Positions 33,220 through 64,000 of a DNA stretch of 64,000 bases are shown piece after piece. The DNA comes from an uncultured Candidatus Saccharibacteria bacterium. GTDB lineage: Bacteria; Patescibacteriota; Minisyncoccia; Phycocordibacterales; DAORIS01. Location: positions 393,093-457,092 of the forward strand of contig CAZXUH010000001.1 in NCBI GenBank assembly GCA_964644035.1. Direction: 5' to 3'. Each line of letters opens with the position of its first letter. The first letter of the stretch is position 1. Position numbers and translations under genes: made by a program. The notes beneath the pieces are model-generated. The model made no database searches and was not told the origin of the DNA. It saw nothing but the letters and a program-made list of their open reading frames with translations.

Positions 33220-35928
33220 TTACTGGCAACCGTCACAAATATTGGCTTCTGCTGGATCGCTTGAATCGACAATTCTCTTGTGTACTCTGTACTGCTTTGG
33301 TCCTTCACTACCCATAACCGTCACTGTCGATGTAGTGGTTTTAGGAGCTGGAGCCGCTGCTGAAGCAACAACTTCTTTGATCTCTTGTTTCTGAGCAACT
33401 GCCACTGGCTCACGAGTGACAACTGCCGATGGCACAGGAATTTCTTTGGCTGGTATAGAAAACGCAGCTTGAATCGGTTCGATCATTGTTTTCTGAAGAG
33501 GAGCGGCAAAGGCACCTGCTGTGACTGTCTCTGCTGCAGGCTTCTTGAATACCCTTCCGAAGCCCATTTTGCCCATAGCAGCACCTTTATTGACCTGAAC
33601 AGTGCTCTGCTCTGCAGTGTGACGAGGCTTCATGTGGAGATAATACGTCGACTTGAGACCCTTTTCCCATGCTGTGCGATAAATCTTCATTGTGTCGTCG
33701 ATATCGCGAGTTTCGAGATACATATTTCTCGAAAGTGCCTGGTCAATCCATTTCTGAGCTCGTGCAGCGACTTCGATAAATGCATACGGAGATGTTGTGA
33801 ACGAAGTTTTGTAAATATCCTTGAGATGCTGAGGAATACCAGCGATATCTGAAATATCTCCCTGCTTTTCAATGATTTCTTCTCTAACCTTTTCCCAAAT
33901 ACCCATATTCTTGAGATCCTTGACCATGTTGTGGTTAATATCGAGATACTTTCCAGAAATCTTATTTCGTGAAAATACCTGAGCAAAGCGAGGATCGATA
34001 CCAGGGGTCGTGCCAGCAACAAGACCAATGTTTGCATTTGGAGCGACGGCCATGAGTGTGGCATTGCGTACACCCTTCTTTACTTTTTCTCGAAGCAAAT
34101 CCCAATTGAGACCTTTATGCTTGCTTTCTTTTGAAACAGTGAGAGCTTTGCCACGGTTTTGTTCGAGCGTTTTGATGCTATCGATAGGCACCTTGCCCTT
34201 TGACCATTCTGATCCAGGGAAATTTTTGTAGCTGCCGCGAACTTCAGCGAGATTTGCTGATTCGTCGATAGCCATATAGCTAATGAATTCAAATATTCTG
34301 TCGGCAAAATCGTGTGCATGTTCTGAATCATATGACATACCAAGCTGTTCGATCGTGTCTGAGAATCCCATCACTCCAAGACCAATAGCGCGATTCTCTT
34401 TGTCCGACTTTTCTGCTTCAGGAATAGGCAGACGGTTGATATCGATAAGATTGTCGAGCTGACGAATAGCAAGACGTACGCTTTCTTCGAGTTTTGCCCA
34501 ACTTACTTCTTTGTTATTAACGTGAGCGGCAAGGTTGAGCGATGCAAGGTTGCAGACAGCGACATTTTCTCTATCCTGTGGAAGACAGATTTCTGTGCAG
34601 AGGTTAGACATATGAATCGTACCAGTGTTGTTGTTGAGAGCACGAAGGTTCATGGTGTCTTTCCAGTTGAGCCATGGGTGTGATGTCGTCTGAAGAGCAA
34701 CAAGAATCTGTCGGAACTGTTCCTGAGCTGGTACCTTCTTGTAGGTGCGTAGTTTGCCGCTTTCAGCCATTTCTATGTACTCTGCGTATCGCTTTGAAAA
34801 TGCGGCACCGTAGAGCTCCACAAGGTCAGGTGTCTCGGCAGGGTCAAACATATACCAGTCCCCGCCTCCTTCGACTCGCTTCATGAACTCATCGGTCATA
34901 AATACGGCTGTATTGGCAGTTCTCATGCGCATATAGTCGTCGCCGGCATTGTGTTTCCAGTCGAGGAATTCAGGAAAATCGAGGTGCCAGTTCTCCATGT
35001 AAAAAGCCAGAGCACCCTTCTTCTTTCCGCCTCTCTGAATAGCTCTAATAGCCGTATCAATAATTTTTGCAAAAGGAGTAGGACCTGTTGAGACACCGCC
35101 GAAATTTGATTTCAAAGGTGAACCGCCTGCGCGGAGTTTTGTAACCGATGCACCAAGACCGCCTGAACCTTTTGAAAGAAGCATGACGTCGGCAACAGAT
35201 TTTGCAATGTGCTCCATGTCATCTTGGATTTCAAGAAGGAAGCAGTTGGAAAGTGCGGGTCGAGTGGTGCCAGCGCCGAGATTGGTCGAGCCGCCAGCGA
35301 TATATTCCATCTTCGACATCTTGTGATAAAACTTCTTTGCCCATTCTGTAGGATCCTTTTCATTGTAAGAAAGGCCCATAGCAATACGCATAAAGAGATA
35401 CTGGGGAGTTTCTACCGACTCCTGCTTCATACCCTTGAGACCATAGCGGTTCATCAGACCATCGAGACCAGCATAGGTGAAAAGTTCATCACGAGTAATG
35501 ACGAGTGTGTCTGCAAGAGACTCTATATTGTATTTAGAGATCATGTCTGGGTGCAAACGGCTATTTGCAACACCGGCTTTGAGGTAGGTAATGAAACTAT
35601 CGCGGTGCTTTTTGCGCAAATCGTCGGCACTATCCTTGTTGTAGTCGCCAAGAACGTTACGATATATGGTTTTGAGGAGGAGACGAGTAGCTACTTTGTC
35701 ATAATCAACATCGAGTTTGATGTTTTGGACGGCCGCATTGATCGTCGCTTGGTCGAGTTCAGTGGTACCTATGCCATCATACAGCGTGAGACGCGTATCC
35801 GTCGCAATCTGCGTGACCATAGCAACAGGATCAGCCAAGCCCTTGGTGGCTCGCTCGATCGATCTGTTGATATGATCGGCATTGAACGGTTCTTTCGTGC
35901 CGTCATGCTTAGTGATGGTGATACTCAT
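33220..35928 (-). CDS. nrdA: Ribonucleoside-diphosphate reductase alpha subunit (class I, with N-terminal ATP-cone)
   Basis: ATP cone (ITKHDGTKEPFNADHINRSIE), ..NLCTEICLPQ.., ..CNLASLNL.. and a C-terminal Cys pair match class I RNR R1. Confidence 0.9.
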   Translation of the reverse strand: MSITITKHDGTKEPFNADHINRSIERATKGLADPVAMVTQIATDTRLTLYDGIGTTELDQATINAAVQNIKLDVDYDKVATRLLLKTIYRNVLGDYNKDSADDLRKKHRDSFITYLKAGVANSRLHPDMISKYNIESLADTLVITRDELFTYAGLDGLMNRYGLKGMKQESVETPQYLFMRIAMGLSYNEKDPTEWAKKFYHKMSKMEYIAGGSTNLGAGTTRPALSNCFLLEIQDDMEHIAKSVADVMLLSKGSGGLGASVTKLRAGGSPLKSNFGGVSTGPTPFAKIIDTAIRAIQRGGKKKGALAFYMENWHLDFPEFLDWKHNAGDDYMRMRTANTAVFMTDEFMKRVEGGGDWYMFDPAETPDLVELYGAAFSKRYAEYIEMAESGKLRTYKKVPAQEQFRQILVALQTTSHPWLNWKDTMNLRALNNNTGTIHMSNLCTEICLPQDRENVAVCNLASLNLAAHVNNKEVSWAKLEESVRLAIRQLDNLIDINRLPIPEAEKSDKENRAIGLGVMGFSDTIEQLGMSYDSEHAHDFADRIFEFISYMAIDESANLAEVRGSYKNFPGSEWSKGKVPIDSIKTLEQNRGKALTVSKESKHKGLNWDLLREKVKKGVRNATLMAVAPNANIGLVAGTTPGIDPRFAQVFSRNKISGKYLDINHNMVKDLKNMGIWEKVREEIIEKQGDISDIAGIPQHLKDIYKTSFTTSPYAFIEVAARAQKWIDQALSRNMYLETRDIDDTMKIYRTAWEKGLKSTYYLHMKPRHTAEQSTVQVNKGAAMGKMGFGRVFKKPAAETVTAGAFAAPLQKTMIEPIQAAFSIPAKEIPVPSAVVTREPVAVAQKQEIKEVVASAAAPAPKTTTSTVTVMGSEGPKQYRVHKRIVDSSDPAEANICDGCQ

Positions 35929-36055
35929 ATAGTGTTGTTTGTAGCCTAACTGATACGGTTAATAAATCGGCAAATAAAAATGCGTCTCCTTAAACACACT
36001 CATCGCCTTGATGAGAACTAGATACAATTGTAACCAAAAAAACTTTCAAAAGACC

Positions 36056-36064
36056 TGTGGATAA
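36056..36064 (-). promoter_or_regulatory. Perfect DnaA box (TTATCCACA on the minus strand) ~125 nt upstream of the nrdA start
   Basis: The plus strand reads cctgTGTGGATAAgtc. Confidence 0.5.
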
Positions 36065-36149
36065 GTCACTGTGATATACAAAATTTTCTTTGTAAATAAG
36101 GATGTCAGAAAATGAAGCTAGGTAGAGCCGCTACAGCAACACACACAAA

Positions 36150-36650
36150 TTAATTTCTCTCAATTTCGACGCTATCCCCAATCTTTGCACCTGAATTTTT
36201 GAAAACTCCAGCATTTACTTCCAAAACATAGCGAGCATTGTCTTTTGGAAAGAAAGTTTCAGGATATGAACCTGGTGTCGCACCTGTTTTTACATCAACA
36301 ATCGTACTCGAAGCACTGAGCCAAATAATATCGATCGGATAATTCATATTTTTCATCCATATTCCCCACTTCTGATCATTTTCAAATATAAAAAGCAGTC
36401 CGGCATCTTGCGCGAGTGATGAAGTATCCGACAATCCATGCGCACGAGTCTCAAAACTATTGGCGATACCGACTCGGAGCGTCGTCGTACCGATCTCAAC
36501 ACTACTTTCTTCAGCCAAGGTAGAGCTTCCGGTCTCGCTGGTAGCTATATAATGCAAGGCCTTAGGGTCTTTTTTGCTAATCCAGTACACAGTAGCACCT
36601 GCAATGACGCATATCGAGACAAAAACCAATAGATATTTAATAAATTTCAT
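36150..36650 (-). CDS. DUF192 domain protein (secreted/membrane-anchored)
   Basis: The N-terminal TM and ..TRAHGLSDTSSLAQDAGLLFIF..WMKNMNYPIDIIWL.. match the DUF192 consensus. Confidence 0.65.
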   Translation of the reverse strand: MKFIKYLLVFVSICVIAGATVYWISKKDPKALHYIATSETGSSTLAEESSVEIGTTTLRVGIANSFETRAHGLSDTSSLAQDAGLLFIFENDQKWGIWMKNMNYPIDIIWLSASSTIVDVKTGATPGSYPETFFPKDNARYVLEVNAGVFKNSGAKIGDSVEIERN

Positions 36651-36651
36651 T

Positions 36652-37707
36652 TTATTCTTGTTCTAAAGTAAATTTCCCTTCTTTTATAGCACTACGGACC
36701 TCATGTGAGACTATTGAGCGTTCCGCGAGCTTACTAAACACTGCAGACTTCTTTTCATCAGACATCAAAACAGCCTGCTCCTTAATAATATCAAATGGAA
36801 AGAGTTCGTAGCTAATCTCATCAGAATCGAGCATTATTTGCACCGCTAAACCTTGGCTCGTAGGTATAGAAAAAGATTGATCGAAAATAAAGTTCCCTAG
36901 AGAATAAAAGATTGCCTTCCCATTATAAATCTCGATCGGCTCGATCACGTGTGGATGAGCACCCAAAATAAGATCAGCACCAGCGTCAATAAATTGCCTC
37001 GCCGTCCTTTTTTGAAAATCGGTCATACCCTGTTCATATTCCTCTCCCCAATGCGGATACACAATCACAAAAGCATCTTGAAGATCTGCCTGCTCGATAG
37101 CTTTCAGCGTAGAAGTAGTATCTTGATCGTAATACTGATGATAACCGACAAAGGCTACTTTTTGTCCTCTCACGTTTGCAATATACGGACCAGGGTTGTT
37201 ATTAAAGGCATCGCCAAAAACCGCTATTCCTGCAGTATTGATAGCTGCAACAGACTGCTCATAGCCTTCTCGACCAAAATCACGTGTATGATTGTTGGCT
37301 TGGCTGAAAATAGTAAAGCCTAGCTCTTTGAGTACAGGCAATGCTCTTTTATCAAAGGTAAAGGTCAGTGTTTTATTGACGAGACTTGCTGTAAGCGATG
37401 GAAAATCGGTAAAAGGACCCTCGGCATTGGCCACCACAATATCGTGACCCTTTAGAAAGCTTTCTATACGTGCAAATGGATACCTATATCCAAATTCTGT
37501 CATTTTATTGCGGACATTTCTATCAAGCATCATGTCGCCAAAAGCCAATATATCGAGTGGCGCATCGGATTTTCTGTCATAATCGGAGGGTATGACAAAA
37601 CCGCCAGTCAAAATCTTGTGCCCACCCGATAGCAAAAGATTGACCAATAATATAGCCACGACACAGATACAAAAGATGAGAAAACGGAGAGCGAAAGAAT
37701 GTTTCAT
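36652..37707 (-). CDS. CapA family (poly-gamma-glutamate capsule synthesis-like) metallophosphatase
   Basis: ..LAFGDMML.., ..ANNHTRDFG.., ..YPHWGEEY.. and ..GAHPHVIEPIE..YSLGNFIFDQ match CapA/PGA_cap. Confidence 0.8.
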   Translation of the reverse strand: MKHSFALRFLIFCICVVAILLVNLLLSGGHKILTGGFVIPSDYDRKSDAPLDILAFGDMMLDRNVRNKMTEFGYRYPFARIESFLKGHDIVVANAEGPFTDFPSLTASLVNKTLTFTFDKRALPVLKELGFTIFSQANNHTRDFGREGYEQSVAAINTAGIAVFGDAFNNNPGPYIANVRGQKVAFVGYHQYYDQDTTSTLKAIEQADLQDAFVIVYPHWGEEYEQGMTDFQKRTARQFIDAGADLILGAHPHVIEPIEIYNGKAIFYSLGNFIFDQSFSIPTSQGLAVQIMLDSDEISYELFPFDIIKEQAVLMSDEKKSAVFSKLAERSIVSHEVRSAIKEGKFTLEQE

Positions 37708-37739
37708 GTTTGGCTGTTAGTCTTTGATATACTTATACC

Positions 37740-38396
37740 ATGATTAGCACAAGAAACCTTTCCCCAAAAGCAAAAAATATTTTAATAATAATTGTCGTTT
37801 TACTTGTCGCCGTCGGCCTCTATTTTCTTTACAATACCGATTCTGGACCCAAAACTGTCGTAGAGGGTCAACCTACTACTTTTGCAGAATTTGGTGTACT
37901 CAATTTCCGTGCTGCCGAAGGATCAAAAAATCTTTCTGATATGTACCTAATCTATGAAGAAGAAGGAAAGCCTTCACTCACTACTCGTCTCAAGCTCAAT
38001 GAAGACAGTATTTGCGTCATGGGAAGCAGTGCTACTCAGTGTCTTGCCATAAGTGCCACACTCAATATCCCTTTCAACAATAGACGCGCAGTAGCAGAAG
38101 GAATCGAAACTGACAACAATGAAGTGATCATAAAGAAACTGCTCGTCCTACAAGCCGACGAACCGGATCCATTTGTGCCACATGCCGGTCTTACCTATAT
38201 TCCATGGATGCAAGCAAAAACTCTTATTCAGGAATGCAAAATAAAAATGGTCACACAGTCACACGATCTCAATGTAGATATTGAACTGCAAGACGGACAA
38301 AATGTTATTGCTGTCGAGCCTACAATAGACGAAGTTTTTGGTGTAGTCAGTCTTTCAAGAGAAAATTGCGGCAATATTCCTGTCGCTACAGAATAA
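37740..38396 (+). CDS. Hypothetical membrane-anchored protein (N-terminal TM)
   Basis: ORF only; N-terminal hydrophobic helix. Confidence 0.4.
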   Translation: MISTRNLSPKAKNILIIIVVLLVAVGLYFLYNTDSGPKTVVEGQPTTFAEFGVLNFRAAEGSKNLSDMYLIYEEEGKPSLTTRLKLNEDSICVMGSSATQCLAISATLNIPFNNRRAVAEGIETDNNEVIIKKLLVLQADEPDPFVPHAGLTYIPWMQAKTLIQECKIKMVTQSHDLNVDIELQDGQNVIAVEPTIDEVFGVVSLSRENCGNIPVATE

Positions 38397-38825
38397 TTAC
38401 TTCTCGAGCAACTCTTTCATCTTAGCGAGCACTGCTCCCCAGTTGCCTTCGGAATGCTTTGCGCTTTCTGGCGTATCTACGTTTTCTTGTTTAATAGTAA
38501 GTTTGGTACCACCATCTTCTGGAGCAAGGATATAAGAGACAACTTGATGATTTTCAGGCAGGTCAGGCAATGCTAAAAAATTGCTGTGATAGGTGCTGAC
38601 AAGAAGTTTCTCTGGTTCTATTTCTAGAATCGTACCTTTGTCGGTATATGCCTTCCCTTCCCAGACTCCCGTATACGTAAGTGAGCTGCCTACTTTCCAA
38701 TCCGAAGATACGTCGGTACCAAACAGATATTGTTTGACCATTGCCGGATCGGTCAATGCTTTCCAGACTTCTGCTGCTGATGCATTGATATGAATCTCTG
38801 CTTTTGCTACGTTTGGATATTTCAT
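38397..38825 (-). CDS. SRPBCC-superfamily protein (AHSA1/activator of Hsp90 ATPase-like)
   Basis: AEIHINASAAEVWKALTDPAMVKQYLFG... matches AHSA1-like SRPBCC proteins. Confidence 0.7.
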   Translation of the reverse strand: MKYPNVAKAEIHINASAAEVWKALTDPAMVKQYLFGTDVSSDWKVGSSLTYTGVWEGKAYTDKGTILEIEPEKLLVSTYHSNFLALPDLPENHQVVSYILAPEDGGTKLTIKQENVDTPESAKHSEGNWGAVLAKMKELLEK

Positions 38826-38941
38826 ATGTTTGAATTTATTTATCTACTTCATTTTTATTGTAACTCAATACTACCCTGTCACCTATTTAGACTTTTTTAA
38901 GTAAAACTGATAGCGTAGATTTAAACAACAAGGAGTTCTTT

Positions 38942-39223
38942 ATGGAAGCAGAAGAGGTACGACGTGTCATCGAAACATATCGTCGAAAATTCGTAGAAAT
39001 GAAGGTTGGGAAAACCAGATTTCCTCATGAAAAAGTCCTGACCGATCAACAACTCGGTTTCGAGCACTGCCATTGGATGCTTGATGAAATGGAGGGCTTT
39101 ATCAAAGAAGAAAGGATGGATAAGGTCAATCGCTGGCTCGGTTTCATCCAAGGCTTTCTGTGGTCAAACCAAGTATATGCCCTTACTGAAATGATGAATC
39201 ACAATCGTAACCAGAAAAAGTAG
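38942..39223 (+). CDS. Hypothetical protein (93 aa)
   Basis: ORF only. Confidence 0.35.
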   Translation: MEAEEVRRVIETYRRKFVEMKVGKTRFPHEKVLTDQQLGFEHCHWMLDEMEGFIKEERMDKVNRWLGFIQGFLWSNQVYALTEMMNHNRNQKK

Positions 39224-39261
39224 ATTTCAAACATCTCCGTCCGAGCAATCGGACGGTTTTT

Positions 39262-39729
39262 TTATTTCAATAACTTTTCTATCATTTCCAATTCCTCGTA
39301 TATACCGGCGATAAGATCGAGTTCTTTTGCTTCTTTGAGACCTACCCATCGATATTCGACAGCGTCTTCATCGAGCTTCACTTCTCCCGAAACATATGGA
39401 GAATAGTAGCTCAAGACCAAAACCGGAATAGCATCAGGACGAATAAATGTCAGATCAAGTAAATACGTCGCCTTTCCTATTTCAACATTTACTTCTTCTT
39501 TCACTTCCCTCCGAAGAGCTGCTTCAACGGCACCATACCACGCACCCATTCCTTCTGTTTGAGGACCGTGCATATAATCATCGACATTGAGACCACCTCC
39601 CGGCACTGTCCATTTATTGGGATGCACTTTCTTCGACGGACTTCTTTTTGTCACCAAAAACTTTCCCTCTTTGTTGTAGATAATACAAGTGATCGCTATC
39701 CTATGTAATTCCTTATCCTTGATTTCCAT
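39262..39729 (-). CDS. NUDIX hydrolase
   Basis: Nudix box GGGLNVDDY...EAALRREVKEEVNVEI. Confidence 0.8.
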   Translation of the reverse strand: MEIKDKELHRIAITCIIYNKEGKFLVTKRSPSKKVHPNKWTVPGGGLNVDDYMHGPQTEGMGAWYGAVEAALRREVKEEVNVEIGKATYLLDLTFIRPDAIPVLVLSYYSPYVSGEVKLDEDAVEYRWVGLKEAKELDLIAGIYEELEMIEKLLK

Positions 39730-39747
39730 AAATGCATTTTAGCACGA

Positions 39748-40317
39748 CTAATTTTTAATCATGACTGCCTTAAAACCAAGCTCATCAGCAAGATTCCTAA
39801 CCAAATCTGAAACAGTTACACCCTTCTTCCCAGCACGATATTCCGCCTGAATTGGGTCATTTACTGAAACGATCCTTTCTTGAATAGATTTAATACCTAT
39901 ATCACCCATTACTTTATTTTTAATAACATCAAATATGATTGACTGAATATTGAGTGGCGTACCCGACAAAAAATTTTCAATGGTTGGTTCAAGTTTTCTT
40001 CTTATAATTGAATGGACATTTTTGAGAGGGATACAATCAATATAAAATGATGGACCTACTAGTTTCGGGTTTCCATAATCATTTTTCTTAATTACCCAAT
40101 CATCTGGTACTTTTATTTCCTTAGGATTTTCTACAATAAAATCAAGATCAGCATTCTTAGACATCGGAACTCCATATATATTTTCAACAATACTTCTAAA
40201 CACAAAGCCTCCCATTAACCATATTCCACCCTCTGAATTTTTCTTAATAATTTCCACGGCTTCCTTGAATTCAGGATATGTATTCGCAATATTAAGAAAT
40301 GATTCTGTGTAATCCAT
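39748..40317 (-). CDS. Hypothetical protein, possibly a nucleotidyltransferase fold (GG...DLDFIV)
   Basis: WLMGGFVFRSIVENIYGVPMSKNADLDFIV resembles a Pol-beta-type hG[GS]...DxD motif, but the spacing is atypical. Confidence 0.35.
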   Translation of the reverse strand: MDYTESFLNIANTYPEFKEAVEIIKKNSEGGIWLMGGFVFRSIVENIYGVPMSKNADLDFIVENPKEIKVPDDWVIKKNDYGNPKLVGPSFYIDCIPLKNVHSIIRRKLEPTIENFLSGTPLNIQSIIFDVIKNKVMGDIGIKSIQERIVSVNDPIQAEYRAGKKGVTVSDLVRNLADELGFKAVMIKN

Positions 40318-40320
40318 TAT

Positions 40321-40923
40321 TCATTTCTTAAGTATAATCTCCAACCATCCTTGTCCTCTCAAATTCACTGATTCACTTTTAATAAAAACAAATTGCTTTG
40401 CAATATCTTTGATATCCTGCAATGAATAGTGGTAATACGTCCTAATTCCAAATTCATCTTCATTGGTAACTTCAGAATACAGATCAGACTGCTTCATAGA
40501 CATCCTCACCACCCCTCCAGGATTGAGATTCTCAAATATCTGATCAAATACTACTTTTAGATTTTCCTTTGATACATGTATAAGTGAGGCGAAGGCAAAG
40601 ACAACATCAAGATTCTCTGGAAACGTATATGTTTCAACATCAGCAATTTCAAATTTCGCTTGAGGTACTTTTTTGCGAGCAAGTTCGATTAACTTTTCTG
40701 AAATATCTATACCGAGGTAGTCGTTTGTGTGCTTAATTATTTCCTCGACATCACGACCGTTACCACACCCAATTTCAAGTGTTTTAGGATTCTTTTTGTC
40801 GATAAGCGCAAATGTTTCTTTTATGTCATTTACTCTCGCACCCAATGTATCAAACTTCAATGCAAGCACATCTGCGCTTTTATTGTATGTATCGGTTGTT
40901 TGAGCTTTTTTACCCTCGAGCAT
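40321..40923 (-). CDS. Class I SAM-dependent methyltransferase
   Basis: Motif I LEIGCGNGRD, post-I DISEKL, ..PGGVV... Confidence 0.8.
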   Translation of the reverse strand: MLEGKKAQTTDTYNKSADVLALKFDTLGARVNDIKETFALIDKKNPKTLEIGCGNGRDVEEIIKHTNDYLGIDISEKLIELARKKVPQAKFEIADVETYTFPENLDVVFAFASLIHVSKENLKVVFDQIFENLNPGGVVRMSMKQSDLYSEVTNEDEFGIRTYYHYSLQDIKDIAKQFVFIKSESVNLRGQGWLEIILKK

Positions 40924-41100
40924 TTATTGGTCCTTAGACTCAGCTTTGAGATAAAACCAAGAAGTTGCCGGACCAATGAGAGCAGCCCATATGTACAACC
41001 ATGTATCTTCATAACCATTGGCTGCCCAGACTACAGCAAGCACTACCCCTGTCACGACATAGATTGCTACGAGCATTTTTTTAGCAGATTGTGGTGTCAT
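40924..41100 (-). CDS. Small (58 aa) membrane protein. It is not in the ORF track (<60 aa); its stop abuts the methyltransferase start.
   Basis: Hand translation: MTPQSAKKMLVAIYVVTGVVLAVVWAANGYEDTWLYIWAALIGPATSWFYLKAESKDQ*. Confidence 0.35.
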   Translation of the reverse strand: MTPQSAKKMLVAIYVVTGVVLAVVWAANGYEDTWLYIWAALIGPATSWFYLKAESKDQ

Positions 41101-41154
41101 ATATTTTATTTATTCTTTTCAAGACTCTTACATTTTATCACTTTTCAACAGCAG

Positions 41155-41244
41155 TGGCGGAGAGAGAGGGATTCGAACCCTCGGTACCGTTACCAGCACA
41201 CAGTCTTTCCAGGACTGCCGATTAAACCACTCTCGCATCTCTCC
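41155..41244 (-). tRNA. tRNA-Ser, anticodon GGA, long variable arm, CCA encoded
   Basis: Reverse complement: GGAGAGATGCGAGAGTGGTTTAATCGGCAGTCCTGGAAAGACTGTGTGCTGGTAACGGTACCGAGGGTTCGAATCCCTCTCTCTCCGCCA. Confidence 0.85.
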
Positions 41245-41300
41245 ATACATGAGCTCACATACTATAACAAAAATCCTCTGATTGAAATCAGAGGATTAAA

Positions 41301-41374
41301 TTGGGATGGCAGGGTTCGAACCTGCAACCTCCACACGCTGTGGCGCTCTACCGGTCTTATTGAGCTACACCCCG
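41301..41374 (-). tRNA. tRNA-like gene with canonical acceptor, D-arm and T-arm (GGTTCGAAC) but an aberrant, short anticodon arm. Identity unclear: Arg-like variable region AGGTT and a C1:A72 mismatch. Possible pseudogene.
   Basis: Reverse complement: CGGGGTGTAGCTCAATAAGACCGGTAGAGCGCCACAGCGTGTGGAGGTTGCAGGTTCGAACCCTGCCATCCCAA. I could not fold a 7-nt anticodon loop by eye. Confidence 0.4.
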
Positions 41375-41435
41375 GGCGATCTCTACAGAGTCTAGCACAA
41401 CAAAATAGCGAGTAAAGAATTTAAGTAATAAGAGT

Positions 41436-42326
41436 CTAGACTGACAAACCACGAAGGATTTTGACTCTTTCAGCCACCGGAGGATGGGTTGAAAAAAGAT
41501 TTGAGAGTTTTTTGGTAGGACCAAAAGGATTGGAGATAAAAAGGTGTGCTGTCGCTTCATTGACTCGCTTCATAGGCTGGCCGTAACCAGAGATTTTTTC
41601 GAGCGCAGACGCAAGACCTTCTGGGTAACGTGTCATAAGTGCACCGGTAGCATCGGCCAGATATTCACGCTTGCGAGAAATTGCAAACTGAATGAGTGTA
41701 GCGACGATCGGAGAGAGGATAACAAAAATAATACCAACAATCATGATAAGAGGATGACCGCCCTTGCTGTCACGATCACGTCCCCCACCCAAATGCATCG
41801 TTCTCAAAAAGAAATTGGCCAGTATGGAAATAAAACCAACCAGCACGACGACAACCGTTGCTATCAACGTATCTCGATTGCCAATATGGGCCATTTCATG
41901 GGCAATCACGCCCTCAAGCTCGGTTTTGCTAAGCATTTGCAGCAATCCTTGCGTCACCGCTACCGCTGCATGATCTTTATTTCTGCCGGTTGCAAAAGCA
42001 TTGGGTGCCTGATCGGGTATGACGTAGACCTTAGGCATAGGCAAACCAGCGGTTATAGAAAGATTTTCGACGACATTGTAGAGATCAGGATGACTTTCAT
42101 TGGTCACCAGTATTGCCTTGTACATCGACAAAACGATTTTGTCCGAATACCAATAACTAACGATATTCATAATGACGCTGAAAAACGCAAAGATATATAA
42201 GATTCCAGGATTGTTATAGGCATAGCTTATATACCACCCAAGTCCAATGATAAGAATGAGAAATGCCGACATGAAAAACCATGTCTTGGCGATATTGCTA
42301 CTTTGATGTGTATAAAGTGTTGCCAT
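41436..42326 (-). CDS. htpX: Zinc metalloprotease HtpX (M48 family)
   Basis: HEMAHIGNRD zinc motif and multiple TM helices. Confidence 0.85.
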   Translation of the reverse strand: MATLYTHQSSNIAKTWFFMSAFLILIIGLGWYISYAYNNPGILYIFAFFSVIMNIVSYWYSDKIVLSMYKAILVTNESHPDLYNVVENLSITAGLPMPKVYVIPDQAPNAFATGRNKDHAAVAVTQGLLQMLSKTELEGVIAHEMAHIGNRDTLIATVVVVLVGFISILANFFLRTMHLGGGRDRDSKGGHPLIMIVGIIFVILSPIVATLIQFAISRKREYLADATGALMTRYPEGLASALEKISGYGQPMKRVNEATAHLFISNPFGPTKKLSNLFSTHPPVAERVKILRGLSV

Positions 42327-42328
42327 AA

Positions 42329-44152
42329 TTAACTTGCTCCTCCGCCACCACCTCCCCCGCCTCCGCCTGCCCCACCACCGCCACCAGAGGCACCAGTACC
42401 AGTAGACGTTGCAAAAGCAGAAGAGAAACTAGAACTAAACGATGCAGAAAATGCCGATGCTGAGAAACCAGGCGATACCGATCCAGAACCATCTACATGA
42501 GCAACCATTATTCCAGGATGAGGAGTAACATACCAGTTTGGTGCCTGCATATTGATCGTTTCAAAAGCCTTGGCCCATTTCTTCTCTATTCCAAACACCA
42601 TAGCGTATGGAAGATATTTTTCAAAGAGATCTGGTGTCAGGTTTTGCAAACGATATTTCTCGGCTGTTTCTAGATACAATCTGAAACCCAGAATCTTTCT
42701 TTTCAGCTCATTGCCTTCTGCATTGAGACGAGTAGCAAACTTTATCCTATATATCGTTCCTAGACCAAGCACAAGCAGAGTTACCAAAAAGATTACTATC
42801 TGAGGAAATTTGTTTTCAAACATGCCTGGCATTTTTGTAGAAAATGCCCCAGAAAAACCTGCACCAATAACCAAAGCCAGCATAAGCACCGAAAAGGCTC
42901 GGAGTGACTTAGGTCTTACTACATATCCTTTGGTATCACTGTACGTTTCCTTGTACAAATTCTTTCTGAGCTTATTTATTTTTGTGGCAAAAGCCATTTT
43001 GGAGCCCTGCCCCATTTTACTCAACTCTTTTGTAGAAAACGTATTTTTATTTTCAAAAAGAACACTGAGAAAACTTTTTTCATAGTCTTCAAGAGTCTGA
43101 TCGTCTGAAAACGATTTTATATTTTCTACCGTATAGTGCTTGCTGCCAAGAGGCATTTTAAATAAACCTAGATTCAAACTCGATGGTGCTTCTTCGGTTA
43201 TTTTGAGATATCCACGCACAGCAAGATCCACAATCGTTGCTGGCCAGGTTTTACCTCCTATAAATGTTTTAGCCACTACTTCAGCTTCAGCTGGACGAAT
43301 ATTGTTGGGTGGTTCATATTCTGCTACTATCGTGCGCGAATGGAGCTGTTTCCAGACCTTGAAATACCAAAACAGAAACAAGAAGACAATAAAAGAGACA
43401 ATCATCACTATTGCAGCCAAAAATCCCCAATAAATAGTGAGGAAACTTTTCCAATATGCAGACTGGTCGATCAATCCTTTGGGCCAACCAAATGCAATAG
43501 TCAGAGCAGTATCAGGAACAATATTTTTTGCTTCAAAAAATGCTCTGCGATTGTCGACTATACGATATGACGGATCGGTAGAACCAACGTCATATATACT
43601 TCCTTGAAGATCGCTGACGGAGAAATTGTTCTCCGGAATCCTAACTGTAGCCGTGACCTGGTCGATAGGCACGTCGTAGCCACCAAAAAGATTCCAATAG
43701 ATTTCATCATGATCGTTGTAAAAACTAATACCACCCCAGACTTTGTATTCTATGATCCATGTATGCGACGTGTCAGCAAGATCGTAATACCAGTCTATAT
43801 ATATCGAACTATTTTTACGATAGTGTGTATATTTTCCCCAACTTGAAGGCTCAAGTTTGTCGAGAGATTTTGAACTGTATTCAAGTGGTTCCCCAGTTTC
43901 AGCATCTATGACCTTAATGTCGGTAATAGCATCTATTTTATTGAGAGGAATAAAACGTTGGCCTTGGTGATATTCGCCGACAAATTCATAGACTTGCCTT
44001 TCTTGGACAGTAAACGTCGAGTCAGCCTGTACCTCTATAGCATAGTCAATAGAATCGTAGTGATACGATCTGTTTTGATTTTGCGCTGCTGCTATCGAAA
44101 ATAAACCGAAAGTCAGCGCAACAAGGCTAACAACGACGGTTATTTTTTTCAT
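42329..44152 (-). CDS. DUF2207-family membrane protein with a C-terminal poly-Gly tail
   Basis: The signal peptide, large extracytoplasmic domain, TM helices and C-terminal SGGGGGAGGGGGGGGGGAS give the typical DUF2207 architecture next to LemA. Confidence 0.7.
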   Translation of the reverse strand: MKKITVVVSLVALTFGLFSIAAAQNQNRSYHYDSIDYAIEVQADSTFTVQERQVYEFVGEYHQGQRFIPLNKIDAITDIKVIDAETGEPLEYSSKSLDKLEPSSWGKYTHYRKNSSIYIDWYYDLADTSHTWIIEYKVWGGISFYNDHDEIYWNLFGGYDVPIDQVTATVRIPENNFSVSDLQGSIYDVGSTDPSYRIVDNRRAFFEAKNIVPDTALTIAFGWPKGLIDQSAYWKSFLTIYWGFLAAIVMIVSFIVFLFLFWYFKVWKQLHSRTIVAEYEPPNNIRPAEAEVVAKTFIGGKTWPATIVDLAVRGYLKITEEAPSSLNLGLFKMPLGSKHYTVENIKSFSDDQTLEDYEKSFLSVLFENKNTFSTKELSKMGQGSKMAFATKINKLRKNLYKETYSDTKGYVVRPKSLRAFSVLMLALVIGAGFSGAFSTKMPGMFENKFPQIVIFLVTLLVLGLGTIYRIKFATRLNAEGNELKRKILGFRLYLETAEKYRLQNLTPDLFEKYLPYAMVFGIEKKWAKAFETINMQAPNWYVTPHPGIMVAHVDGSGSVSPGFSASAFSASFSSSFSSAFATSTGTGASGGGGGAGGGGGGGGGGAS

Positions 44153-44713
44153 TTAGAATTTTACTTCGACTGGATTTCGAGCTGCCGCATCTGCCTCACC
44201 AAGCTCAAAGAATGGCATTTTTTCAAAATGGAAGATGTTTGCAATAACGTTTGAAGGGAAAGATTCGACAGAAATATTCAAATCACGAACATTGCCATTG
44301 TAAAAGCGTCGTGACGCCTGGACCTTATTTTCTGTATCAGAAAGTTCTCTCTGGAGTTCTAGGAAATTCTGATTGGCCTTGAGATCAGGATATGCTTCGG
44401 CGATAGCGAAGACAGACTTAAGTGCTCCAGTGAGCATGTTTTCTGCTTTTGACTTATCTTCAACAGAACCAGCCGACATAGCCTGGCTACGAGCTTTGGT
44501 AACATTTTCAAAAGCACTCGATTCGTGAGTGGCATAGCCTTTAACGGTGTTGACGAGGTTTGGAATCAAGTCATAACGGCGCTTGAGCTGTACGTCGATA
44601 TCAGCCCATGCTTCTTTAGTGCGGGCAATCAGTCGTACGAAATGGTTGTATGAAGCCGCAAACCAAATGGCCACAACAACGATTATTCCGAAGAAAATGA
44701 ATATTACGATCAT
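44153..44713 (-). CDS. lemA: LemA family protein
   Basis: The N-terminal TM plus ..RRYDLIPNLVNTVKGYATHE..SRRFYNGNVRDLN.. match LemA. Confidence 0.85.
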   Translation of the reverse strand: MIVIFIFFGIIVVVAIWFAASYNHFVRLIARTKEAWADIDVQLKRRYDLIPNLVNTVKGYATHESSAFENVTKARSQAMSAGSVEDKSKAENMLTGALKSVFAIAEAYPDLKANQNFLELQRELSDTENKVQASRRFYNGNVRDLNISVESFPSNVIANIFHFEKMPFFELGEADAAARNPVEVKF

Positions 44714-44773
44714 ATGTTTGTGTTAATCTATATTATTACACCAGGAGTATAGCATTTATTCCAGTTTTTCTCA

Positions 44774-45052
44774 TCAAGCCAGAGTTTCCCGCAAATGCTT
44801 TTTATGGATAGCGTTTTCCATGAGACTATTGACGTTATCTGACACATCTCTCAATTCAGACTTTACATTCGACAAATCTGTTTTAATAAATGACACATCA
44901 GACTCCAACCTACCCAATCTATTCTCTACCCGTTCAAATCTCGCATCTATTTGCTCGAATCTTTTATCAATCAGAAGAAATTTCTGATCAATTGTATCGA
45001 ATTTTACTTCCAAATACTCATACAGTTTCTTAAATGCTGTTTCAATATTCAT
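44774..45052 (-). CDS. Small coiled-coil hypothetical protein
   Basis: ORF; heptad-rich sequence. Confidence 0.4.
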   Translation of the reverse strand: MNIETAFKKLYEYLEVKFDTIDQKFLLIDKRFEQIDARFERVENRLGRLESDVSFIKTDLSNVKSELRDVSDNVNSLMENAIHKKHLRETLA

Positions 45053-45132
45053 TATTATTTTCTTATTACTCTAATATGCAAAAAGTATTGCATATCGGGT
45101 ATGAAGAATATTTAAAAAAATAATAAAGAGAA

Positions 45133-47095
<1,963 letters not shown>

Positions 47096-62535: not shown

Positions 62536-63072
62536 CTATTTTAAGAGTTCAGCAAACTCCTTCTGAACCTTGTCCAATTTGGGGTTTATGACCACCTGAC
62601 AATAGCTATTTTGAGGATTGCGGGCAAAGTAGTCATTGTGATACTCCTCGGCAGGGAAAAACTCCTCAAGCACCTTTACTTCGGTCACGATTGGATCTCC
62701 AGCACTACTCGAAGCATTGAGTGTAGCTATAAAATCATTGGCTCGTTTCTTTTGATCATCAGTTGTCGTCAATATAATAGAGCGATACTGTGTACCTATA
62801 TCTGCCCCCTGCCTATTGAGAGTTGTCGGATCGTGCGATGCAAAGAAAATAGTCAGCAGCGTTTCGTAAGCGACCTGTTTCGGATCATATTCGATCCTTA
62901 TTACCTCAGCATGACCGGTCATACCAGAAGAAACATTTTCATAATTTGGATTTTTAGTCTGACCTCCAGCATATCCAGGACCTACTGCCGATACACCCCT
63001 CAGCATTTTGAATACTGCTTCAGTGCACCAGAAACATCCTCCACCAAACACAGCAATTTCTTTTTCATTCAT
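62536..63072 (-). CDS. msrA: Peptide-methionine (S)-S-oxide reductase MsrA; start taken at MNEKEIAVFGGGCFW
   Basis: The GCFWC active site matches MsrA. Confidence 0.9.
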   Translation of the reverse strand: MNEKEIAVFGGGCFWCTEAVFKMLRGVSAVGPGYAGGQTKNPNYENVSSGMTGHAEVIRIEYDPKQVAYETLLTIFFASHDPTTLNRQGADIGTQYRSIILTTTDDQKKRANDFIATLNASSSAGDPIVTEVKVLEEFFPAEEYHNDYFARNPQNSYCQVVINPKLDKVQKEFAELLK

Positions 63073-63140
63073 GCACACATTATATATCAAACAAAATACC
63101 CCTTTCGGGGTTATTTTGAATATCACGCAGTATTTTTAAA

Positions 63141-63293
63141 TTACTGAATAGGATTTTGTCCTTTGATAAGTCTAATGAGAATAGCAATGATGGCTATTAC
63201 GAGTAGAACATGAATGAAACCTCCAATGGTATAAGAAGTCACTATTCCCAAGAGCCATAAGACGATAAGTATGATTGCAATTGTCCAAAGCAT
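63141..63293 (-). CDS. lmo0937-family small membrane protein (50 aa; not in the ORF track)
   Basis: Hand translation: MLWTIAIILIVLWLLGIVTSYTIGGFIHVLLVIAIIAILIRLIKGQNPIQ*. Confidence 0.55.
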   Translation of the reverse strand: MLWTIAIILIVLWLLGIVTSYTIGGFIHVLLVIAIIAILIRLIKGQNPIQ

Positions 63294-63344
63294 GGTTTTA
63301 TTTTTAAGGTGAATAAATACTTCTTACTTAATCATAACACAACG

Positions 63345-63371
63345 AAAAAATCGGCATCTCTGCCGATTTTT
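63345..63371 (-). terminator. Rho-independent terminator hairpin ATCGGCA-TCTC-TGCCGAT with flanking A6/T5
   Basis: Read directly: aaaaaatcggcatctctgccgattttt. Confidence 0.55.
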
Positions 63372-63376
63372 CACAA

Positions 63377-63454
63377 ACTACCTTTTTTTACTTCGCTTCT
63401 TCGTCTTTTTTGTCTTCTTTGTTGCTCTTTTCTTAGATGCCTTTTTCTTTGCCA
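63377..63454 (-). CDS. Possible tiny Lys/Arg-rich ORF (25 aa), immediately upstream of the terminator
   Basis: Hand translation: MAKKKASKKRATKKTKKTKKRSKKR*. Weak SD. Confidence 0.2.
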
Positions 63455-63594
63455 TAATATATTTCTTAATTTGAGTTGTTAATGTCGACCCCGTGTCGGT
63501 ACCTCAATAAAATTATACCGAATGCTGTGCAGATGTATACACTCGTCAACATAAAAACTGTTGATAAGTGCAAAAAATAAAAATCAGAAAAAAT

Positions 63595-64000
63595 TTACGG
63601 ACACGCTACGATTCCACTTCCAAGTGCAGAAGAAATTTGTCGCGCTGCTCCGCTGTTGTCGACACACCAATATGCACCAGTGCCAGAAAGTTGTGCAGAC
63701 ACTGCGTACGCAACACCGCTACTGTTGCATACAAGACTTGAATACGAAGGATAATTTGAAGCTGAAACCAGTCGTGCCAAACCTGCCGATGTATCAGTAA
63801 ACATTCCACTGCCGCAACTAGTACTGACCGATCCATAATCTCCTGCTGTTGTGTAGTAGAGCTCAGCTGCATTTCTAATATGCGCCATTTGAGCCTTTAT
63901 CTTGGCGTCATTTCCCTTGGTACGTGCAGTACCAAGTGCTGAGAGAGCAATAGCCGAAAGAATACCCATAATGGTAATAACAACCAGAAGTTCAATGAGG
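63595..64000 (-). CDS. Type IV pilin/pseudopilin (prepilin-type N-terminal methylation domain); N-terminus runs off the window end
   Basis: The open frame at the window edge encodes ..LIELLVVITIMGILSAIALSALGTARTKGNDAKIKAQMAHIRNAAELYY.., the class III signal/hydrophobic helix motif. A C-terminal Cys pair is present. Confidence 0.8.
   Translation of the reverse strand, partial: LIELLVVITIMGILSAIALSALGTARTKGNDAKIKAQMAHIRNAAELYYTTAGDYGSVSTSCGSGMFTDTSAGLARLVSASNYPSYSSLVCNSSGVAYAVSAQLSGTGAYWCVDNSGAARQISSALGSGIVACP

Follow-up and report, generated by a model that had tools for sequence, protein, structure and literature searches.

Related enzymes and tRNA-derived elements

The class II tRNA nucleotidyltransferases and poly(A) polymerase I (PAP I) are the described enzymes closest in fold to a 189-aa stand-alone nucleotidyltransferase, which is encoded next to a class I S-adenosylmethionine (SAM) methyltransferase in a 64,000-nucleotide stretch of contig CAZXUH010000001.1 (the whole stretch is called the window below). 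The two genes lie on the 3' side of a tRNA-Ser(GGA) gene in a bacterium of the candidate phyla radiation (CPR), and an aberrant tRNA-like gene lies on the other side of the same tRNA. The reading preferred here, which is considered somewhat better than an even bet, is that a variable chromosomal segment carries an enzyme pair working on a common substrate, and that the tRNA-like gene is a separate feature.

The head fold of the 189-aa protein is shared with the Aquifex A-adding enzyme (PDB 3WFO), E. coli PAP I (3AQL), the Thermotoga CCA-adding enzyme (3H37) and the B. stearothermophilus enzyme (1MIV); whereas the protein has neither body nor tail domain, gives no match to PF01743, is sporadically distributed and is sometimes fused to a methyltransferase. 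The motif B (RRD) and motif D (EDxxR) of the class II enzymes are also not clearly kept. The same fold is found in PDB 2LA3, a 191-aa stand-alone 'CCA-adding enzyme head domain' of unknown function from S. pneumoniae (NP_344798.1). However, 2LA3 belongs to another family and another phylum, and no sequence similarity was detectable, as the profile search of the PDB was empty. We know of no methyltransferase link for 2LA3.

Non-decoding tRNA-shaped RNAs have also been described. The mammalian mascRNA and the MEN-beta tRNA-like element are made by RNase P and RNase Z and are tailed by the CCA-adding enzyme. They resemble the window gene in their tRNA shape and their non-decoding anticodon arm, and the processing enzymes recognise the acceptor/T-arm half. 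This is an analogy only; these RNAs are eukaryotic, are released by cleavage from long non-coding RNAs at their 3' end, and have no sequence relation to the window gene. The tRNA-Other of Bacillus cereus is a non-translational pseudo-tRNA flanking a genomic island, and its recruitment as a tRNA-like structural element has been proposed (PMC3399842). The window gene is likewise tRNA-derived, non-translational and located at the edge of a variable block; whereas tRNA-Other retains the whole anticodon arm and belongs to a longer regulatory transcript, the window gene has a 3-nt loop and appears to be a unit of its own with a terminator. In the searchable literature, neither the 189-aa family nor its fusion to a methyltransferase was found described, nor were tRNA-like genes of CPR bacteria that lack an anticodon.

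The 189-aa nucleotidyltransferase and its predicted fold

Sequence searches of the 189-aa protein against Pfam, NCBIfam, PADLOC, PHROGs and PDB were empty. It has 44 close homologues, one of which is named Berkelbacteria, and an exhaustive profile search gave 609 cluster representatives, almost all of 185-200 aa. The family is sporadic, and most of its members come from assemblies of metagenomes, CPR genomes (Paceibacterota, Berkelbacteria) among them; it was not found in viral contigs, phage records or plasmids.

The AlphaFold (AF2) model of the protein has a predicted local distance difference test score (pLDDT) of 95.8, and its top structural matches were A-adding and CCA-adding enzymes. 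Alignment of 39 homologues showed that G36, D57, D59 and D94 are invariant and that G37 is nearly so; these residues belong to a Pol-beta-type head with the GG...DxD motif and a third acidic residue. The modelled fold is that of the catalytic head of the class II tRNA CCA-adding enzymes and poly(A) polymerases, and the metal-binding carboxylates are intact. An earlier note on this DNA, made from the sequence alone, had suggested a possible minimal nucleotidyltransferase motif and named the Pol-beta, CD-NTase and MNT families for comparison. The motif proved to be Pol-beta-type with a conserved GG...DxD...D pattern; however, it is not of the CD-NTase or MNT type and matches the class II CCA/poly(A) head. 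The fold, the family profile and the adjacent effector of the CD-NTase/CBASS systems are all absent from the 189-aa protein and its surroundings, and the protein is not a minimal nucleotidyltransferase of ~100-140 aa beside a HEPN protein, as in the HEPN-MNT systems.

Several observations weigh against a close relationship to the class II enzymes. None of the 39 members matched PF01743 (PolyA_pol) in Pfam, even at E values up to 10. Sequence homology was undetectable; hhalign against an approximate sequence of E. coli Cca gave a probability of 2.6%. This weak alignment places SGTP opposite KRRD, so that motif B is out of register, and a conserved RR pair lies 12-18 residues earlier. As for motif D (EDxxR), a stretch N-D-x-E-Q (residues 153-157) is only partly conserved among the homologues. 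The protein ends at residue 189, before any tRNA-binding body or tail. On the basis of the model, the protein is best regarded as an active-looking, minimal and distant relative of the class II RNA nucleotidyltransferases; it is not a member by sequence criteria.

Link between the nucleotidyltransferase and the methyltransferase

In one of the longer members of the family, P0310 (408 aa), the C-terminal part is a class I methyltransferase domain. The search with P0310 revealed 23 clusters of full-length fusions of ~400 aa, which share 43-59% identity with the query. Because these clusters come from NCBI, JGI, ENA and Logan sources, the fusion is considered real and recurrent. Its N-terminal half matched the 189-aa family (100%, E 1.9e-52), and its C-terminal half matched residues 4-200 of the window methyltransferase (98.5%, E 1.8e-15). 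The domain order is the reverse of the gene order in the window, where the methyltransferase gene comes first and the nucleotidyltransferase gene follows 3 nt on. The structure model of the fusion has a predicted TM score (pTM) of 0.86, and the N-terminal half of the fusions is basic (isoelectric point, pI, ~9).

The two window genes are also alike in base composition. Their GC contents are 0.36 and 0.328, with third-codon-position values (GC3) of 0.318 and 0.247, respectively; the mean of the 64-kb window is 0.428 (sd 0.030). The pair is the DNA of lowest GC in the window and holds the lowest 600-bp value (0.313). The recurrent fusion and the shared low GC show that the methyltransferase and the nucleotidyltransferase form one functional unit, with the NUDIX hydrolase gene that follows them outside it. 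The two genes were probably acquired together and presumably act on one substrate.

Elsewhere in the window, only two 600-bp stretches have a GC content of 0.35 or less (63001-63600 and 44701-45300).

Other observations count against the pairing or its assumed target. Among the four distinct stand-alone contexts that were read (window, L002, L005 and L008), an adjacent methyltransferase was found only in the window itself; therefore, most family members work without one nearby. Moreover, the nearest solved structures of the methyltransferase are small class I enzymes, two of them unassigned and the following ones mostly small-molecule enzymes, and not RNA methyltransferases. The stand-alone nucleotidyltransferase family is mildly acidic (median pI 5.7) and has no RNA-binding domain.

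Genomic contexts and possible substrates of the enzyme pair

The genes just downstream of the nucleotidyltransferase differ among three of these contexts. They encode a NUDIX hydrolase in the window, a HIT (DcpS_C) protein plus an HD 5'-nucleotidase in the second, and a GNAT protein in the third. In the second of these (L008:6001-7685), the 189-aa homologue is followed on the same strand by the DcpS_C-type HIT protein and by the HD-domain, YfbR-like nucleotidase; like the window NUDIX, these are enzymes hydrolysing nucleotide conjugates. In L005, a tRNA-Gly(GCC) gene (5880-5952) lies 50 nt upstream of the homologue (6001-6612), and a 591-aa NTP_transf_2 protein is encoded 2 kb downstream, beside tRNA-Val. 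No tRNA or tRNA-like gene was found near the homologues in L002 and L008.

In the proposed mechanism, the nucleotidyltransferase would move a nucleoside monophosphate (NMP) from a nucleoside triphosphate (NTP) onto the 3'-hydroxyl of an RNA or oligonucleotide, and the methyltransferase would methylate the same molecule that had been extended. This substrate is favoured because the structural relatives of the nucleotidyltransferase all extend RNA 3' ends; by this analogy the coupled reaction is put forward tentatively, at rather less than an even chance. The NUDIX hydrolase and the 58-aa membrane protein would be co-transcribed neighbours in this genome only, and not fixed partners.

The pair might instead act on a small molecule, such as a phospho-metabolite, a nucleotide or an antibiotic. 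It would then form an NMP or nucleoside diphosphate (NDP) conjugate that is methylated and is cleared by NUDIX- or HIT-type hydrolases. The best PDB sequence matches of the methyltransferase, which are phosphoethanolamine N-methyltransferases (E 2.4e-13), agree with such a role. The nature of the downstream genes (NUDIX, HIT plus HD nucleotidase, GNAT) and the acidic stand-alone family without RNA-binding domains point the same way; whereas the basic N-terminal half of the fusions does not. A small-molecule substrate is possible but doubtful.

The 189-aa protein could also be a minimal CCA-adding or tRNA-repair enzyme for tRNAs without an encoded CCA, the neighbouring tRNA-like RNA included. 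The A-adding and CCA-adding enzymes among its top structural matches are as this would predict, and the tRNA-like gene indeed has no encoded CCA, in contrast to the two normal tRNAs of the window. tRNA genes also lie close to the nucleotidyltransferase gene in the window and in L005. However, the domains that would hold a tRNA (body and tail) are missing, the EDxxR template is not clearly kept, and the RRD of motif B is out of register. The family is so sporadic (the 44 close homologues; the 609 clusters in 1.8 billion) that it cannot be the essential enzyme of these lineages, and L002 and L008 have no such RNA gene nearby. This alternative is regarded as improbable.

Even less credence, by a shade, is given to the combined idea of a minimal two-piece CPR enzyme which would tail and methylate the 3' end of tRNA-shaped RNAs, with the anticodon-less tRNA-Pro derivative described below as its dedicated substrate or cofactor. 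If it were true, it would be a previously undescribed system of a tRNA-like RNA and a stripped-down CCA-enzyme relative.

To the earlier note, the nucleotidyltransferase, the NUDIX hydrolase and the methyltransferase were reminiscent of modules for nucleotide signalling or modification. A second-messenger or anti-phage module of the CBASS/CD-NTase type, made up of the four genes of the run, could be suspected from the occurrence of these three enzymes together beside a tRNA, and from generic PADLOC matches of the NUDIX hydrolase (PDC-S07, 1e-13) and the methyltransferase (mad2, 7e-17). However, the nucleotidyltransferase itself has no PADLOC match, no effector gene is present, and the family was not seen in viral contigs, phage records or plasmids. 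The NUDIX gene has an ordinary GC content, and the neighbours of the homologues vary from locus to locus (GNAT, HIT plus HD, none); because the neighbour differs in every homologue locus read, NUDIX is not a fixed partner. A three-gene module is not supported, and a signalling or defence role is considered extremely unlikely. The preferred reading remains an enzyme pair with a common substrate, which would most plausibly be an RNA or oligonucleotide 3' end.

The variable segment beside tRNA-Ser

Seven related HtpX loci were compared with the window. The HtpX homologues carry Paceibacter/Paceibacterota names, and the nearest non-identical ones are only ~72% identical. In five of the loci (L130, L131, L132, L293 and L295), HtpX is followed by tRNA-Ser(GGA), and the genes past the tRNA differ in each of them and from those in the window. 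For example, L130 has an unrelated methyltransferase, a glyoxalase-like protein and a transporter, L132 has a cupin, and L293 has a P-loop kinase-like protein. The L130 methyltransferase was considered as an orthologue of the window enzyme and was rejected, as the two share 28% identity over the generic core only. DUF192 ends the variable stretch in L130 and L132, and ribonucleotide reductase (RNR) is next in L132, as in the window. The PGA_cap protein of the window is not at the corresponding position in L130 and L132.

These comparisons show that ~4.5 kb with eight genes form a lineage-variable accessory segment of a Paceibacterota (CPR) chromosome, anchored by htpX-tRNA-Ser(GGA) on one side and DUF192-RNR on the other. 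The block had been proposed from the sequence to be accessory, and it is so, with relatives keeping both anchors and carrying other genes between them; the check suggested at that time, the presence or absence of the block in relatives, showed that it is not universally conserved, with contents that differ in all five loci.

The same proposal placed the block on the usual integration side of tRNA-Ser. The variable content does start there; however, neither an integrase nor an attachment (att) repeat was found. The ten window proteins scanned with Pfam included no integrase, and the region 35500-42500 contained no direct repeat of the tRNA-Ser 3' end and no att-like repeat. The segment resembles tRNA-anchored islands in that variable genes extend from the 3' side of a conserved tRNA and that part of the block has a deviant GC content; whereas it differs from them in having no integrase, no direct tRNA 3' repeat and no mobility genes. 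It looks more like a recombination hot spot or islet than an intact element. The window is matched at 100% identity by two Logan contigs, each from its own run. Both break within tRNA-Ser (at 41184 and 41158), where one stops and the other starts, with a 27-nt overlap. These breaks suggest a branch of the assembly graph, with alternative flanks in the sampled population.

A tRNA-like gene without an anticodon loop

The tRNA-like gene matched the Rfam tRNA model (RF00005) with 44 bits, against a gathering score of 29. According to the Rfam alignment, the acceptor stem has seven pairs with a C1.A72 mismatch, and the D arm has a 4-bp stem and an unusually long 13-nt loop. The anticodon arm has a 5-bp stem and a 3-nt loop (GCG) where a 7-nt loop belongs. 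These are followed by a 5-nt variable loop, a canonical T arm and the discriminator A. No CCA is encoded; whereas both normal tRNAs of the window encode it. All four stems are intact, and U8, A14, G18G19, A15:U48 and the T loop TTCGAAC are retained; therefore, the RNA should still fold into an L whose anticodon limb is shortened. Energy minimisation gives the cloverleaf with the 3-nt loop (-24.3 kcal/mol), although this energy is no better than that of shuffled sequence (z = -0.62).

Because the 5-bp anticodon stem closes a 3-nt loop, the tRNA-like gene is unable to decode. The first reading of this gene as an aberrant tRNA with canonical acceptor, D and T arms and no 7-nt anticodon loop was thus upheld by the Rfam alignment and by folding. 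ARAGORN, which had been proposed as a check, called tRNA-Ser(GGA) at its expected place and no normal tRNA at the position of the tRNA-like gene, for which it gave no call at default settings. With relaxed settings it gave a tRNA-Arg(GCG), the sole alternative with a 7-nt loop. This was rejected because it requires A33, U37, a D stem of 3 bp and a G.A mismatch; the fold of this candidate (-17.0 kcal/mol against -24.3 kcal/mol) is 7.3 kcal/mol worse than the cloverleaf. A Y-RNA or tmRNA was also rejected, as Rfam matched tRNA alone and no pairing extends beyond the acceptor stem. The Logan contig L296, from another run, is identical across HtpX, the tRNA-like gene and tRNA-Ser; because this assembly is independent, the sequence is not an assembly error.

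The -10-like element upstream (Table 1) resembles TGtTATAGT (41261-41269) upstream of tRNA-Ser; it is absent from the consensus scan list. With this element and a strong terminator, the tRNA-like gene is probably a small transcription unit of its own. In a genome-collection scan, 99 of the 119 genomic matches to its acceptor and T-arm pattern were tRNA-Pro, although the pattern is generic and returned ordinary tRNA-Pro and tRNA-Trp genes from many phyla. Because of these matches, the gene is regarded as a tRNA-Pro derivative with G72 changed to A.

A counterpart was found at the same site in L129, whose HtpX is 72% identical to that of the window; by HtpX identity, L129 is the nearest relative with any such gene. 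There, a tRNA-Pro-like gene follows HtpX (L129:2459-2552, plus strand; 58 bits with Rfam); it has perfect acceptor, D and T arms, and 28 nt replace the 7-nt anticodon loop. ARAGORN gave no call for it. It is followed by a hairpin terminator and TTTTGTTATAGTAT, which is also present in the window, and then by another tRNA. The cloverleaf with the extended arm (-39.1 kcal/mol) is practically the unconstrained optimum. An archaeal-type intron was rejected for this gene; the insert forms a 4x5 internal loop and a helix, not a bulge-helix-bulge, and there is no Pro anticodon context.

Comparison of the 21 stem pairs of the two genes showed that 14 are identical, five are changed on both sides yet still paired, and one is G-U against G-C; the sole mispair is C1.A72 in the window gene. 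The 15:48 tertiary pair is A:U in the window and G:C in L129. The DNA flanking the two genes has diverged past alignment. For these two sequences, with their orthology presumed, the pattern suggests what selection on an anticodon-less tRNA body would give.

Selected RNA or dead gene

Whether the tRNA-like gene is kept by selection as a non-decoding tRNA-shaped RNA, or is a dead gene, is finely balanced, and the sequence evidence inclines by the narrowest degree to selection. In either case the gene would be a feature separate from the enzyme pair. The rival, which is given a little under an even chance, is a dead tRNA-Pro duplicate in which a small deletion removed the anticodon loop and which is now decaying without function.

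The evidence against selection is as follows. Three departures from normal tRNA-Pro (G72A, the enlarged D loop of 13 nt, and the anticodon loop collapsed to 3 nt) fit decay. G72 is used by the bacterial prolyl-tRNA synthetase (ProRS), and is removed by C1.A72 in this gene. The tRNA-like gene is absent from the five relatives compared above; L293 and L295 have HtpX proteins 72% identical to that of the window, yet no tRNA-like gene. In a metagenome scan with a pattern excluding U33 tRNAs, no relative was found among 39 loci; the window itself was not recovered either. Aberrant copies of tRNAs occur commonly, phage tRNA arrays being one example, and the unremarkable folding energy is also what a dead copy would show. 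Moreover, the two copies could each stem from a tRNA-Pro gene of their own; the compensatory changes would then be older than any loss of function.

However, a dead duplicate does not readily account for the four intact stems, nor for the retained U8, A14, G18G19, 15:48 pair and T loop. The same-site L129 counterpart, also without a normal anticodon loop, keeps the tRNA body, with five compensatory pairs despite flanks that can no longer be aligned. The tRNA-like gene also has its own terminator, and CPR genomes are compact.

tRNA-like genes in viral and metagenome contigs

A pattern scan of viral contigs revealed dozens of tRNA-like genes with intact acceptor, D and T arms and with anticodon arms that are too short or too long; because of these, the architecture of the window gene is not unique. 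In the viral loci L134-L253, the anticodon arms are 12-17 or 19-42 nt instead of 18 (for example L196:5141-5220, L205, L200 and L163). Some of these genes lie within arrays of 9-34 tRNAs, and others are solitary. L243:988-1070 (viral) has the alanine identity pair G3:U70 and a 3-nt loop. A near-identical tRNA-like gene starting with GTGGTCTAGGTAGCTCAG was found in the viral contigs L152, L157, L161, L171, L172, L180, L184, L219 and L220. It carries a 41-42-nt structured insert in the anticodon arm, and ARAGORN detected no ordinary tRNA in L157, the single locus that was checked.

Several tRNA genes of normal length with C33 in place of the near-universal U33 were also seen. They occur in the metagenome loci L255-L259, L267, L272, L275, L277, L279, L280, L282, L286 and L289, in the viral loci L134, L135, L137 and L142, and in L254, L269, L278 and L290. 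Their kinds include Asn-like loops CCGTTAA (many gut-type contigs), Ile-like loops CCGATAA (viral contigs) and tRNA-Pro with C33.

Gene content of the locus

The features of the locus are listed in Table 1. The four genes, tRNA-Ser(GGA) and the tRNA-like gene of the earlier note were all recovered at the positions given there by the open reading frame (ORF) list, ARAGORN and Rfam, as were the SRPBCC protein and the two hypothetical proteins that it placed further out. Its NUDIX, SAM methyltransferase and SRPBCC assignments are backed by Pfam.

Table 1. Features from htpX to the DUF192 gene, with positions in the window.
Feature	Position	Strand	Evidence
htpX (M48 zinc protease), upstream anchor of the locus	41436..42326	-	Pfam Peptidase_M48 1.6e-33, NCBIfam HtpX 1.3e-98
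Extended -10-like element TGcTAGACT, 14 nt upstream of the tRNA-like gene	41389..41397	-	spotted by eye
tRNA-like gene, tRNA-Pro-derived	41301..41374	-	Rfam RF00005 44 bits
Intrinsic-terminator hairpin (11-bp stem, 4-nt loop, T tract), 4 nt past the tRNA-like gene	41272..41297	-	terminator scan
tRNA-Ser(GGA) with encoded CCA	41155..41244	-	ARAGORN; Rfam 53 bits
58-aa hydrophobic protein, first of four co-directional genes, abuts methyltransferase start	40924..41100	-	ORF list
200-aa class I SAM methyltransferase	40321..40923	-	Pfam
189-aa stand-alone nucleotidyltransferase; catalytic GG(36-37), D57, D59, D94	39748..40317	-	ORF list, fold
155-aa NUDIX hydrolase, ends the run; 18-nt gap to the preceding nucleotidyltransferase	39262..39729	-	Pfam NUDIX 61.5 bits
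GC-rich hairpin, 8-bp stem (6 GC pairs), between the convergent NUDIX and 93-aa genes	39237..39256	.	terminator scan
93-aa hypothetical protein, convergent with NUDIX	38942..39223	+	phrog_7775 E 9.4e-14; no Pfam match
142-aa SRPBCC/AHSA1-fold protein, in the variable segment	38397..38825	-	Pfam AHSA1 7.2e-25
218-aa hypothetical protein, N-terminal hydrophobic segment, in the variable segment	37740..38396	+	ORF list
351-aa PGA_cap (CapA-like) protein, last gene of the variable segment	36652..37707	-	Pfam PGA_cap 3.6e-60
DUF192 protein, downstream anchor, then RNR	36150..36650	-	Pfam DUF192 7.1e-28

The gaps within the four-gene minus-strand run are 0, 3 and 18 nt, and the hairpin behind it is likely a two-way terminator. 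The 58-aa protein, predicted from its hydrophobic sequence to be a membrane protein, and the 218-aa protein have no match in Pfam, NCBIfam, PADLOC or PHROGs. The 58-aa gene (GC 0.441) and the NUDIX gene (GC 0.415) are ordinary for the window. In the Nudix box of the NUDIX hydrolase, the REVKEE core is kept and Gly replaces the first Glu (of GX5E); no NCBIfam subfamily scored above its cut-off. The 93-aa plus-strand ORF matches phrog_7775, a family of phage proteins whose function is unknown; this hints at a phage or mobile element as the source of part of the variable segment. Upstream of htpX, a DUF2207 membrane protein (42329-44152, minus strand) terminates with a long Ser/Gly-rich tail that includes a run of ~20 glycines.

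Significance

The genomes of CPR bacteria are tiny, and much of their protein space is unannotated. A previously unannotated family of ~600 clusters can now be given a fold, that of the class II CCA-enzyme/poly(A)-polymerase head according to the model. The family also gains a likely working partner in the methyltransferase fused in 23 clusters, and the substrate is now directly testable. The enzyme pair is clear and testable; whereas the tRNA-like RNA is suggestive and thinly supported. If neither idea holds, the locus would be an ordinary variable islet beside a tRNA gene. If the substrate is an RNA, no relative of the CCA-adding enzymes smaller than this family would be known; the family would be coupled to methylation and would bear on how template-independent RNA polymerases work without a tRNA-binding body. 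Moreover, the window gene, its L129 counterpart and the viral genes raise the prospect that anticodon-less tRNA bodies may be a recurring type of functional RNA, and not debris.

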